A DNA stretch of 53,830 nucleotides from a virus. Its lineage: Duplodnaviria > Caudoviricetes. The stretch is taken from positions 1 to 53,830 of the IMG/VR virus record IMGVR_UViG_3300029265_000685; one strand, 5' to 3'. The notes beneath the pieces are model-generated. The model made no database searches. It was not told where the DNA came from and saw only the letters and a list, made by a program, of their open reading frames with translations. This document shows positions 22,551 to 48,886 of this stretch, piece by piece. How positions within the stretch are numbered: position 1 is the stretch's first letter; each line of letters opens with the position of its first letter. A program made the position numbers and the translations under genes.

Positions 22551-23344
22551 TAAAATATTCACATGAAGTACCTTTATGTTTACTAGAAGATAGTAGAAAA
22601 TTTAATACTTATGACTACTGCTTACCCCATCTATTAGATGAGAATCAGGATTATTTAGAATTTTTTAGAAAATCAAAGAAAGATGGACGTTATATCATAA
22701 TGGATAATTCACTCCATGAATTAGGTAAAGCCTATGATTCTTATCGTTTATTACATTGGATCAACGAATTAAAACCAAATGAATTCATCATCCCTGATGT
22801 TTGGGAAGATATGGAAGGTTCAATTAAAAATGCTAAAACTTGGTTGAATTATAAACTACCCGAAGGTGTTGAAAAAGTAGTAGTTGTTCAAGCAACAACA
22901 CTCCATGAAGCATTTGAGTGTACTAAAATATATAAAGAGTTAGGTTACAAAAAAATCTGTTATTCTTATGGTGCCTCATATTACAATGACATAATCCCAC
23001 ACCCCAATAAAGATTTAGGTAAGGCATTAGGTCGCTTATTTGTAATTTCAATATTATATAATCAAGGTGTATTAACTGAAAATGATAGAATTCATTTGTT
23101 AGGTTGTGCAGTTCCTCAAGAATTTGGATGGTATGAAGATATTAAATGTATTGAATCTATAGATACTTCAAACCCCGTAATGGCTACTTTAGAAAATGTT
23201 AAATATACAGATGCAGGTTTAACTAAAAAACCAAAAGCAAATATGAATGATCACTTTGACATGATGTATGATGAGGTAGATTACGATTTATTAGATTACA
23301 ACTTAGAAAAATTTAAAACAATTAATAATTTAAAAACCAAATAG
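22547..23344 (+). CDS. Divergent TGT-fold protein, candidate DNA 7-deazaguanine transglycosylase (DpdA-like)
   Basis: Ordered motifs IIMDNS, IIPDV, VVQ, IHLLG, SIDTS match the TGT/DpdA barrel pattern; upstream of queCDE/folE. Confidence 0.6.
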   Translation: MIKYSHEVPLCLLEDSRKFNTYDYCLPHLLDENQDYLEFFRKSKKDGRYIIMDNSLHELGKAYDSYRLLHWINELKPNEFIIPDVWEDMEGSIKNAKTWLNYKLPEGVEKVVVVQATTLHEAFECTKIYKELGYKKICYSYGASYYNDIIPHPNKDLGKALGRLFVISILYNQGVLTENDRIHLLGCAVPQEFGWYEDIKCIESIDTSNPVMATLENVKYTDAGLTKKPKANMNDHFDMMYDEVDYDLLDYNLEKFKTINNLKTK

Positions 23345-23346
23345 TT

Positions 23347-23544
23347 ATGATTTCACTTTACGATTACACAGGAGAAAAAGATTGTGATGGGAGAGGATTA
23401 AGAGTTAATGCTTATGCAATACTTAAAAACCAACCATTTAAACAAAGATATTTAGAATTTGCGAATAGAGAAGTATTTTTATATACTAAAGAATTATTGG
23501 ATGAATACTTTGAAGTAGAAAAAATATTTAAAGTAAAGAAATAA
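23347..23544 (+). CDS. Hypothetical protein
   Basis: 65 aa ORF in the operon. Confidence 0.55.
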   Translation: MISLYDYTGEKDCDGRGLRVNAYAILKNQPFKQRYLEFANREVFLYTKELLDEYFEVEKIFKVKK

Positions 23545-23568
23545 CTAAATCAACAAAATAAAATACTA

Positions 23569-23784
23569 ATGGCTTTAAAAAAACAAACAATACGAGGTTT
23601 AGAAAAAATAACACTGAATGGTGATTCTACTACTAAAGAAGAATTAATTACTCTGAGTGAAAGCTGGAGTGAAAATGAAGAGTTAGTAGTAAGAAAAATC
23701 CTCCAACAAGGTGGAAAGTGTAAAATTGGGAAGGATGTTATAGCTGTAGTCCGCCCTGATGAAGTATACAGTTTAGTAAGATAA
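23569..23784 (+). CDS. Hypothetical protein
   Basis: 71 aa ORF in the operon. Confidence 0.6.
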   Translation: MALKKQTIRGLEKITLNGDSTTKEELITLSESWSENEELVVRKILQQGGKCKIGKDVIAVVRPDEVYSLVR

Positions 23785-23785
23785 C

Positions 23786-23817
23786 AGGATTAGCCTATAT
23801 CCTTAAACATACCAGGC
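23786..23817 (+). ncRNA. Candidate cis-regulatory H-type pseudoknot in the queC leader
   Basis: AGGAT(23786-90)/ATCCT(23799-803) stem; loop GCCT(23793-96) complementary to AGGC(23814-17); A-rich 10-nt linker. Confidence 0.45.
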
Positions 23818-23836
23818 ACATTAAAATTAAAATACA

Positions 23837-24685
23837 ATGCAGATGAAATTAGATTTCGAACAAGAAAAACACGTAGTAGTATCACTCTCAGGTGGTATGG
23901 ATAGCTCAACATTATTACTTAGATGTTTAAAAGAATATGACACAGTAACTGCAATATCTTTTGATTATGGTCAAAAACATAGAGTTGAGTTAGAAAGAGC
24001 TCAATCGTTAATTGATTATCTAGAAGAAAATGGACATAAAGTAAACTATAAACAAATTAAATTAGATGGTTTATCAAGCTTATTGGACTCAGCGTTAGTT
24101 GAAGGTGGTAAAGAAGTTCCTGAAGGACATTATGCGGATGATAATATGAAAGCTACAGTTGTCCCTAATAGAAATAAAATATTTGCTTCAATTGTCCAAG
24201 CGGTAGCTTTATCCGTTGCTAATAAATCAGGAGAAACTTGTAATATCGCTTTAGGTATCCATGCTGGAGATCATCAAATTTATAAAGATTGTAGGCAAGA
24301 ATTTCGTGATGCTGACGATGCTGCTTTTAGAGAAGGTAACTGGGATGCTGAACGTGTGGGTTATTTTACTCCTTATCTTCTTGGGGATAAATATGATATT
24401 CTCCAAGATGGGGTAGCGCTATGCGAATACTTATGTATAGCATTTGACGACGTATATGCTCGTACTATCACATCATACAAACCTATATTTAATAAAGAAA
24501 CATTCGAATGGTATGCAGATTACAAATCAGCATCAAGTGTTGAACGTATTGAAGCATTTATAAAACTGGGTAGACCTGATCCTTCACAATACGCAGATGA
24601 GTCAGGTACTGTAAGTTGGGAAGTAGCGGTAGACCATGTAACTAAAGTATTAGTATTAAAAGCAGTAGTAGAACAATTAAAATAA
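23837..24685 (+). CDS. queC: 7-cyano-7-deazaguanine (preQ0) synthase
   Basis: SLSGGMDS PP-loop, FDYGQKH, VPNRN, GIHAGD..YKDCR. Confidence 0.93.
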   Translation: MQMKLDFEQEKHVVVSLSGGMDSSTLLLRCLKEYDTVTAISFDYGQKHRVELERAQSLIDYLEENGHKVNYKQIKLDGLSSLLDSALVEGGKEVPEGHYADDNMKATVVPNRNKIFASIVQAVALSVANKSGETCNIALGIHAGDHQIYKDCRQEFRDADDAAFREGNWDAERVGYFTPYLLGDKYDILQDGVALCEYLCIAFDDVYARTITSYKPIFNKETFEWYADYKSASSVERIEAFIKLGRPDPSQYADESGTVSWEVAVDHVTKVLVLKAVVEQLK

Positions 24686-24690
24686 AATAA

Positions 24691-24951
24691 ATGAGTGATC
24701 GAGAAATAATGGATGGTAAAAAATATGAGATGGGTAATATTGAAAATTCACCATTTAAAAAAACAAGACGTTCTAAGAAAAAGAAAAAACAACAACTCCC
24801 AGATGCTAGAAAACATCAAATTGTAGGTTTTGTAAAATCTATAGTAAGGATTGCCGGATATATCCTTATTCCTTTTAATTTGGAGTCTGCGGTAATTCTT
24901 CTTATATTGAGCGAAATAGTAGTTAGAATTTTTCTTCCAGAATTAGTATAA
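24691..24951 (+). CDS. Small membrane protein
   Basis: Basic N-half and two hydrophobic segments in the C-half. Confidence 0.55.
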   Translation: MSDREIMDGKKYEMGNIENSPFKKTRRSKKKKKQQLPDARKHQIVGFVKSIVRIAGYILIPFNLESAVILLILSEIVVRIFLPELV

Positions 24952-26516: not shown

Positions 26517-26693
26517 ATGGAAAACGTAGCAAAAGAAATAGTTGCAGGTATTAATAAAACAACTAATGATTATGATGCCGCCGAAGAAGTAGATAGGATA
26601 TTAAAGAAATATTTAGTTAAGAGAAAATCCCAAAAATATGAAAGAACTAATAAATCAGAAATCAATAGAAATTCAAACCAAGATAATAGCTAA
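26517..26693 (+). CDS. 58-aa hypothetical protein (not in ORF track)
   Basis: Hand translation MENVAKEIVAGINKTTNDYDAAEEVDRILKKYL...; fills the queE-PRTase gap and overlaps the PRTase start. Confidence 0.45.
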   Translation: MENVAKEIVAGINKTTNDYDAAEEVDRILKKYLVKRKSQKYERTNKSEINRNSNQDNS

Positions 26694-27141
26694 TCAAATT
26701 ACAGCGAAACATAAGGATGATAAAACATCTATTGTTATGGTTGGTTTACTTAATGGTTGTTTTGCGTTTTACAGCGATTTAGTTCGAGCTATGCCAATTG
26801 ATGTGGAATGTGATTTTATGCGCGTTAAATCGTATATAAATCGCAAACAAGGTGATATAAAAATCACTAAAGACTTAGAGACACCTATCAAAGGTAAGCA
26901 TGTTTACATCGTAGATGATATCTACGATACAGGTAATACAATGAAAGCCGTAATTGAATATTTAGAAGTTAAAAACCCATCATCAATATCGATAGCAACT
27001 TTAATTACAAGAGAAACTAGTCCTATTCCTACCCAACCCTTATTTAATGCTTTTACTATTAAAGATGAATGGGTGATCGGATTTGGAATGAATAATGATA
27101 AAGGATATTGCAGAAATTTACCTTCAATTTGGGCTCTGTAA
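26638..27141 (+). CDS. hpt: Purine phosphoribosyltransferase (HGPRT family)
   Basis: GLLNG, VKSY, PRPP-binding motif VYIVDDIYDTGNT, VIGFGM, RNLP. Confidence 0.88.
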   Translation: MKELINQKSIEIQTKIIANQITAKHKDDKTSIVMVGLLNGCFAFYSDLVRAMPIDVECDFMRVKSYINRKQGDIKITKDLETPIKGKHVYIVDDIYDTGNTMKAVIEYLEVKNPSSISIATLITRETSPIPTQPLFNAFTIKDEWVIGFGMNNDKGYCRNLPSIWAL

Positions 27142-48598: not shown

Positions 48599-48886
48599 AT
48601 GAATATGAAATGTGTTAAGTGTAAAAATATAATAAACCCACTACGAATGAAAGCATTGCCTAATACTAAGGTATGTGTAGATTGTTCAACAGCTGGGGCT
48701 TATAAAGCAGTCACTACTACTGAAGGTAGTGGAGACCATACTTGGAATGATATCCAAATATTAACTCCCGACCAATTTGATAGCTACCAACAAGCTGAAG
48801 ATAAGATAAGGGAAATGAAAAATCTCCCAAAATCTAGTGGGTTAGAAGAAGAGATAGAAACCCCATTAAAAAATAAGAAGAAATAA
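48599..48886 (+). CDS. DksA/TraR-type C4 zinc-finger protein
   Basis: CVKC...INPLRMKALPNTKVCVDC. Confidence 0.75.
   Translation: MNMKCVKCKNIINPLRMKALPNTKVCVDCSTAGAYKAVTTTEGSGDHTWNDIQILTPDQFDSYQQAEDKIREMKNLPKSSGLEEEIETPLKNKKK

Follow-up and report, generated by a model that had tools for sequence, protein, structure and literature searches.

The queC Leader and Its Pseudoknot

The window considered here is the whole stretch of DNA that was analysed, namely the 53,830 nucleotides (nt), or 53.8 kb, of IMG/VR virus record IMGVR_UViG_3300029265_000685 (Duplodnaviria; Caudoviricetes), whose completeness is estimated at 33%. Its queC gene, identified by Pfam family PF06508 (E 4.9e-35) and by phrog_1550, opens a run of genes in the order queC, orf86, thioredoxin, queD (6-pyruvoyltetrahydropterin synthase, PTPS), queE (radical S-adenosylmethionine), a purine-type phosphoribosyltransferase and folE. 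Inside the 52-nt gap before queC lies a compact H-type RNA pseudoknot of 32 nt (23786-23817), which ends 19 nt before the ATG at 23837. The comparison of related leaders described below gives good support to the view that this element is an uncatalogued structured RNA, kept in hundreds of uncultured phage contigs and in one cultured Flavobacterium phage.

Riboswitches are rare in phages, where only a handful have been found, and phages might use undiscovered classes, as put forward in the accessible text of McCown et al. (2017, PMC5473149). Full-text searches of the literature found no paper describing a structured RNA before a phage queC gene. In the available text of the preprint by Cui et al. 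(10.1101/2023.04.13.536721), the word 'riboswitch' occurs 0 times.

The element was originally proposed, in a sequence-only reading of the window, as a candidate variant of riboswitches that sense preQ0 (7-cyano-7-deazaguanine) or preQ1 (7-aminomethyl-7-deazaguanine). The letters and coordinates given there for AGGAT, ATCCT and AGGC, the length of the gap and the distance to the ATG proved exact on re-reading. The absence of a visible Shine–Dalgarno (SD) or terminator platform was confirmed as well, since no SD-like purine run occurs in 23818-23836 and no terminator-like site in 23300-24100. The remark that the segment is rich in G+C holds in direction, with 40.6% against 32.2% for the window, but the difference is weak because 20% of all 32-nt segments are at least as G+C-rich. 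The features of the locus are collected in Table 1.

Table 1. Parts of the queC leader element and neighbouring genes in the window
Feature	Position	Strand	Remarks
P1 5' strand (AGGAU; DNA AGGAT)	23786-23790	+	Pairs with 23799-23803
Hairpin loop (TAGCCTAT)	23791-23798	+	Letters checked
L1 (UA)	23791-23792	+	Variable across the family
P2 5' strand	23793-23796	+	GCC kept in the family; U23796 paired in the window only
L2 (AU; UAU in the family register)	23797-23798	+	Invariant in all class-A leaders; U23798 stands where preQ1-I has its specificity C
P1 3' strand (AUCCU; DNA ATCCT)	23799-23803	+	Pairs with 23786-23790
L3 (TAAACATACC / UAAACAUACC)	23804-23813	+	10 nt; A-rich (5 A in 10 nt); AUACC end
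P2 3' strand (AGGC)	23814-23817	+	GGC kept in the family; A23814 window-specific
Spacer	23818-23836	+	19 nt; A/U-rich (10.5% G+C); without SD; presumed ribosome landing zone
queC, 282 aa	23837-24685	+	Gene directly 3' of the pseudoknot; presumed regulated gene; PF06508, phrog_1550
Upstream open reading frame (ORF), 71 aa	23569-23784	+	From the ORF list; stop codon 23782-23784 ends 1 nt 5' of P1
ORF, 265 aa	22547-23344		0.5 kb upstream; phrog_19058, no Pfam family
ORF, 86 aa (orf86)	24691-24951		Directly after queC; lysine-rich N-terminus, hydrophobic C-terminus, no family
Purine-type phosphoribosyltransferase	26638-27141		PF00156, E 9.4e-24; between queE and folE in the 7-deazaguanine cluster

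On the window alone, the element is not distinguishable from chance. The minimum free energy (MFE) of 23770-23850 is no better than that of shuffles (z = -0.08), a measure that is uninformative for a pseudoknot. A generic descriptor, which asks for a 5-bp stem closed by U-A, U as the last loop base, AYAC at the end of L3 and complementarity between tail and loop, has 12 matches on the two strands of the window. The specific pair of boxes occurs once, against 0 expected, and no second copy of the element was found in the window. The comparison with related phages settles the matter in favour of a real element.

Conservation in Class A Phages

Class A denotes the subtype found in the window and in immuto-like phages, which presumably infect Flavobacteriia. 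The nearest cultured relative of the window phage is Flavobacterium phage vB_FspM_immuto (immuto), with 69% DNA identity in queC and 72% identity in the QueC protein. Among cultured phages, the QueC type of the window occurs at >60% identity only in immuto isolates; the leaders covered here include that of immuto but not those of the Cellulophaga phages or of other QueC-bearing cultured phages. Immuto and four related viral contigs have the same boxes, GCCTAT and ATACC(T)GGCA, in their queC leaders, and the stem around the first box differs in sequence.

An exact-pattern scan of IMG/VR viral contigs gave at least 120 rows, which together with loci L001 and L003-L006 and the window made 126 sites for examination. 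Among the matches listed, 78 are family members; 77 of them have at least four consecutive P1 pairs and one (L077) has three. The N-terminus of QueC begins 17-24 nt after the second box in 74 of these 78, which upholds the tie to queC drawn from the 19-nt distance in the window. The other 48 sites, comprising 47 stem-less ones and L085, have no queC and were dismissed as chance matches.

Loci were additionally picked by QueC protein alone, which removes ascertainment on the boxes. Model R1 matches 60 of 80 such loci, each time just 5' of queC except in L206. Five protein-based retrievals yielded 376 loci with 209 distinct leaders of related phage queC genes, of which 122 are class A, 42 belong to a variant class and the remainder have neither. 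In 116 of 118 leaders, P2 is separated from the ATG by a spacer of 17-25 nt, most often 19-20. R1 has no match in phage QueC loci at a greater distance (L007-L016, 37-62% identity). In five of five phage genomes of 130-177 kb, immuto included, R1 has one strong match per genome, located at queC; two additional matches in these large genomes are weak (E 0.1 and 0.6).

Locus L206 (1047-1500, on the same contig as L125) carries two tandem leaders, the first of class A and the second of class C, described below, with a different P2. The order is class-A element, dead queC start (an 8-codon ORF), 70-aa ORF, class-C element and intact queC. This arrangement looks like the replacement of leader and queC as one module.

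The element has so far been seen on phage or phage-like contigs only. When one genome per species was scanned across 185,579 bacterial and archaeal species, the exact pattern, which represents the commonest P1 type only, occurred in two contigs of metagenome-assembled genomes (MAGs), both with a phage-type queC. A scan for the commonest P1 type does not prove absence from bacteria.

The unpaired bases of the element, lying within GCCUAU and AUACCU, are strictly invariant over 118 leaders, which is more than the helices require. The family L3 is A/U-rich with a fixed AUACC end. L1 is free to vary, with TT in 50 of the 118 leaders, TA in 47, AA in 8, CC in 5, TC in 4, TG in 3 and CA in 1.

Compensatory Changes in Both Helices

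Pairing in P1 was counted over 74 aligned leaders, corresponding to 70 distinct rows. Three of the five pairs change on both sides (G-C/A-U, C-G/G-C and G-C/A-U), giving 36 double-change cells against 7.0 +/- 2.2 in shuffles, a value reached by 0 of 500 shuffles. Overall, 97.1% of P1 cells are paired, whereas sliding the partner strand never gives more than 38.4%. Of the 70 rows, 55 have the outermost A-U pair, and the loop-closing pair U23790-A23799 is invariant in all of them.

P2 in class A is GCC...GGC in 118 leaders and GCC...GGT (GGU) in 4, so that the helix is broken in none of the 122. Because the position of A23814 is T (U in RNA) in 118 of 118 other class-A leaders, the family P2 consists of three base pairs, GCC/GGC. 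Of the 4-bp P2 drawn from the window, these three pairs stand family-wide, but the fourth, U23796-A23814, exists in the window only. Two targeted scans looked for altered P2 loop bases. With loop ACC there were six matches, among them two genuine members (L546 and L549), both with a GGT tail, by which G-C became A-U. The single match with loop GCT (L552) is genuine and has GGC, by which C-G became U.G. All class-A P2 variants seen thus preserve pairing, with changes from G-C to G.U, A-U or U.G.

The covariation check on related queC leaders consequently bears out the H-type pseudoknot that had been proposed from one sequence, as P1 and P2 are each backed by compensatory change. Chance stems in an A/T-rich spacer, which the MFE and the 12 descriptor matches in the window might have suggested, are refuted by this conservation and covariation before queC in related phages and retain practically no probability.

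Sister Classes Before queC

Leaders outside class A were examined with a variant descriptor, which requires a stem of 4 bp or more, a 7-12-nt loop, A[TC]AC[CT] at the end of L3 and a tail that can pair with the loop. It matches 37 of 87 distinct non-A leaders, and shuffled leaders pass it at a rate of 3.85/160. The matches form coherent groups at the same place and in the same QueC clade. Class B has P1 [C/T]GGAT / ATCC[G/A] and P2 G[G/A]CCC / GGGTC; it is visibly near class A, with two to three substitutions in the two boxes. Class C has P2 [A/G]CTCC / GGAGT and also GCCCC / GGGGT. A further group, named here for its long L3, has a 6-bp P1 and a P2 that occurs as GAAAGC/GCTTTC, GAATGC/GCATTC, AAAAGC/GCTTTT, AAAGAC/GTCTTT, TAGAAC/GTTCTA and others.

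Whether the descriptor itself had created the complementarity was tested by selecting leaders on the hairpin only. This selection gave 43 non-A leaders, 37 of which pass the P2 test. In five of the remaining six (L434, L435, L449, L464 and L544), a tail complementary by eye follows an L3 ending in ATACG, and new P2 versions among them are AAGTCC/GGACTT and AAACTC/GAGTTT. The sixth, L352, has the hairpin without a complementary tail.

The long-L3 group was aligned in structural register (alignment A6; 25 sequences, 20 distinct rows). Five of its six P2 pairs change on both sides, with 99.2% of cells paired, and three of its six P1 pairs do the same. Altogether, eight pairs show double changes against 2.9 +/- 1.1, a number reached by 0 of 500 shuffles. 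Both inner P1 pairs are UA in 20 of 20 rows. Model R2, built on this group, found four further long-L3 members and matched nothing in class A, B or C and not L544. The cross-class P2 comparison was based on a purpose-written script together with this in-register alignment; a cross-class MAFFT alignment was not in structural register and was left unused for pair counts.

Common to all classes are the U-A closing pair, a U as last loop base, an L3 ending in AYAC and the position before queC. In the canonical register, the last loop base is U in 157 of 157 descriptor matches, 147 as scored by the script and 10 as class-A leaders given a shifted register. L3 ends in ATACC in 130 of these 157, in ATACT in 13, in ACACC in 9 and in ACACT in 5. 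As neither R1 nor R2 detects the other classes, what links class A to the long-L3 group is architecture and context and not a demonstrated sequence homology.

The long-L3 leaders carry an SD-like GGAG or AAGGTG 5-8 nt 3' of P2, and the hosts of this group (L362-L474) probably use SD-dependent initiation. The fold family would thus span phages of different host groups. On a class-C contig (locus L471, 1178-1452), two tRNA genes (65 and 57 bits) directly follow queC, and a third is cut at the end of the locus.

Comparison with preQ1 Riboswitches

The closest known architecture is that of the preQ1-I riboswitch (RF00522). The shared features are an H-type pseudoknot of ~33 nt with a 5-bp P1, a short P2 formed by loop and tail, an A-rich L3 and a location directly before queC. 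The preQ1-I-like topology seen in the window, with a P1 of about 5 bp and a P2 between loop and 3' tail, is hence upheld. Moreover, the SD of the long-L3 group follows the knot at a distance of a few nt, a placement shared with the type I example from Carnobacterium in the available text of PMC10018353.

Membership in preQ1-I did not survive the search against Rfam 15 (4227 models). RF00522, whose gathering score is 39 bits, does not match the element in the window, whether the limit is E<=10 or the gathering score, or in five further class-A phage genomes. No Rfam 15 family reaches its gathering score anywhere in the window, and on 23775-23845 only chance-level matches appear (E 2.6-5). In the variant loci, RF00522 lies exactly on the element in 3 of 20, all of the long-L3 group and all below threshold (27.2, 21.7 and 20.3 bits). 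Scores are accordingly sub-gathering everywhere and absent in class A.

The second distinction concerns the specificity base. In preQ1-I, the two bases directly 5' of the second P1 strand are invariably UC in type I and AC in types II and III, the C being the base that pairs with preQ1, according to the text available for PMC11625349. The phage element never has C at this position. The earlier description, a U in place of the ligand-pairing C and a P1 closed by U-A, is right as to the missing C and the closing pair, but the base is U only if the U-A pair forms. In the Rfam PreQ1 alignment of long-L3 members, P1 has 5 bp, the loop begins with UU and ends with AA or UA, and the base is A.

Further differences from preQ1-I are an L2 of 1-3 nt, an L3 ending in AYAC[C/U/G], the lack of an SD in or near P2 in class A, and the confinement to phage or phage-like contigs, judged by the two MAG contigs found with the commonest P1 type. 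The element is not filed as preQ1-I because of its model score and its specificity base. It may nevertheless be preQ1-I-like in action, and it may descend from a preQ1-I pseudoknot.

Additional weak RF00522 matches lie away from the element. Two of 11 bits in the window (24725-24772 and 48833-48882) are far below 39 bits and were read as chance; the first, with 11.3 bits, falls in the A-rich coding part of the 86-aa ORF after queC. In a complete 168-kb phage genome, a match of 12.8 bits (E 0.64; G002:C1:53449-53483, minus strand) stands ~230 nt 5' of the class-A element and is probably chance too.

The preQ1-II and preQ1-III riboswitches resemble the element as pseudoknotted leaders of queuosine-pathway genes. 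Their models (RF01054 and RF02680) match nothing in the window, either with the limit at E<=10 or with the gathering score. They differ in being much larger (~100 nt for class III) and in preceding the transporter gene queT, as described in the accessible part of PMC11625349.

Proposed Function in queC Translation

The favoured reading, held with about even confidence, is that of a phage-specific, cis-acting pseudoknot that controls the translation of queC, most likely as a riboswitch for a small ligand. The knot would form in the mRNA just 5' of queC and, once folded, would make the A-rich L3 and the 5' part of the leader unavailable to the ribosome as single-stranded landing zone. About 19 nt of unstructured A/U-rich RNA would be left before the AUG. 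The tight 17-25-nt spacing suggests that the knot bounds this landing zone. Translation initiation in Bacteroidota proceeds largely without SD sequences, on unstructured A-rich leaders. The missing SD is thus expected if the host is of the Flavobacterium type, a possibility raised by the host of the nearest cultured relative.

The fold would most likely depend on a small ligand, within a preQ1-I-like architecture whose specificity cytosine has been replaced. By analogy, a ligand that stabilises the junction of P1 and P2, the site of the invariant U, would lower queC translation. The sensed molecule would be a metabolite of the 7-deazaguanine pathway, and the element would set the flux for guanine replacement in phage DNA. 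In immuto, all deoxyguanosine (dG) is replaced by fdPreQ1, as reported in the available text of the preprint cited above (10.1101/2023.04.13.536721). Since the replacement concerns every dG, the flux through QueC must be very large, and a feedback device is plausible.

A more specific version, put forward tentatively and with somewhat less than even confidence, is that the element is the first widespread phage-specific riboswitch class, an offshoot of preQ1-I in which the cytosine has been replaced and which recognises another molecule, or recognises a 7-deazaguanine by a new mode. Candidate ligands would be 7-carboxy-7-deazaguanine (CDG), preQ0 or a modified preQ1, for instance the formylated base found in immuto-type phages. 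If this were true, the phage would meter queC while swapping every guanine of its DNA for 7-deazaguanine.

The distance from the upstream stop codon to P1 is at most 5 nt in about half of 53 distinct class-A contexts (median 5 nt; range -2 to 794 nt), so the element is often intercistronic and not at a transcript 5' end. A 206-nt contig from an rRNA-depleted seawater RNA library matches 23735-23940 with 0 differences and extends from the upstream ORF across the knot into queC. Further contigs from this library match parts of the DpdA3-like gene discussed below, queC, thioredoxin and queD; as all these matches are contigs, they give no information on transcript ends, strand or expression level, and uncovered parts are not interpretable. 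The seawater sample contained the window phage, or one nearly identical to it, possibly in an active state.

Several observations weigh against a riboswitch. No alternative, anti-pseudoknot pairing was found in the queC leader region, and no classical expression platform is visible. Of the 376 related queC loci, 87 have no element, and there queC often abuts the upstream gene. Within class A, queC is the only gene carrying the element in the genomes searched, so the presence before several genes of a pathway that is a hallmark of riboswitches is missing. R1 and R2 do not detect each other's classes. The lack of C at the specificity position in either register belongs here too; the invariant U and A around the loop are able to pair, and the pocket may therefore be self-filled without need of a ligand. 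Finally, the 206-nt RNA contig is compatible with co-transcription of the knot and queC, and carried-over DNA may be its source.

The significance of the element lies partly in its location on the pathway to hypermodified, restriction-resistant DNA and in its size of ~33 nt, small enough for direct biophysics. A cultured phage-host pair with the element exists, namely immuto on Flavobacterium sp. LMO8, and with the known DNA chemistry of this phage, the sensing by a phage of its own DNA-modification precursors becomes directly testable. Additionally, a natural preQ1-I-like fold without the specificity C would show how a minimal aptamer shifts its ligand or becomes ligand-independent, and the SD-less leader may reveal how a switch operates in Bacteroidota-type translation initiation.

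Alternative Explanations

The strongest competitor, considered rather improbable, is a structured leader that works without any ligand. The knot would fold by itself, with U-A in place of the pair between ligand and C, and would keep queC translation fixed, low or coupled, for instance by being melted by ribosomes terminating on the upstream ORF, or it would serve mRNA protection. The loop ends in the Rfam register (UU ... AA or UA) are able to pair, the closing pairs never vary (UA in 70 of 70 class-A rows and at both inner pairs in the long-L3 group), and no expression platform in the form of a terminator or an anti-pseudoknot pairing was found. Where the upstream stop lies within 5 nt of P1, a terminating ribosome would unfold this helix. 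However, coupling is not general, because the gap to the upstream ORF reaches 794 nt and some members follow a terminator-like hairpin. Likewise, a simple attenuator would hardly need unpaired bases in L2 and L3 that stay strictly the same in 118 leaders.

Binding of a protein to the loop and tail, which would make the element a translational operator, appears unlikely. The partner could be a phage or host protein such as QueC, another pathway protein or ribosomal protein S1. In the targets of T4 gene 43 and RegA, a known protein binds a simple hairpin or a linear site. The phage element shares with such operators a small hairpin that has a conserved loop and lies close to where a single phage gene starts; stems of 5 bp with a conserved loop of 8 nt are a known operator format, sequence-invariant single-stranded boxes suit recognition by a protein, and there is one element per genome. 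It differs in having a covarying second helix that crosses the first, and no partner protein is evident. No gene consistently co-occurs with the element, as homologues of orf71, orf65 and orf86 are present in 10, 5 and 30 of 60 class-A loci, respectively; the 71-aa upstream ORF, in particular, is too seldom present for the element to be travelling with it. Moreover, the P2 strands vary freely across classes yet stay complementary, which is a better fit to an RNA fold than to a sequence-specific protein site, and the weak preQ1-I likeness of the long-L3 group points the same way.

A signal acting at the DNA level, be it a queC promoter, a queC operator or a site recognised by a DNA enzyme, would suit the location just 5' of the gene, and it is very improbable. 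Compensatory changes in two crossing helices are useless in duplex DNA. Sigma-70-like matches in the region are at chance level (3 against 3.6 expected), in a count that does not cover Bacteroidota-type promoters. In addition, about half of the contexts leave no room for a promoter, and each genome has a single element. In loci L003 (~2905-2950) and L004, which have the same sequence, a promoter must be close by: there, a G+C-rich terminator-like hairpin with a T-run stands ~20 nt 5' of the class-A element, so that queC would have its own promoter very near or overlapping the start of the element.

Gene Neighbourhood

The 71-aa upstream ORF has no Pfam or PHROG family match. At the DNA level, the 265-aa ORF upstream of it resembles a hypothetical gene of the Campylobacter phage CP220 group, and 50 of 80 related loci have a homologue no more than 1.5 kb 5' of queC. 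In the available text of the Cui et al. preprint (10.1101/2023.04.13.536721), a DpdA3 DNA transglycosylase is assigned to CP220-group Campylobacter phages and to immuto. Because of the similarity to these phages and this placement, the 265-aa ORF probably encodes a DNA transglycosylase of the DpdA3 type.

QueF (PF14489) was not found in the window, which is uninformative given the estimated completeness of the record. Homologues of the 86-aa ORF directly after queC occur in 30 of 60 class-A loci, compared with 3 of the 20 remaining loci. The phosphoribosyltransferase between queE and folE might act on a deazaguanine base, and its presence would be odd if the modification were a purely post-replicative base exchange.

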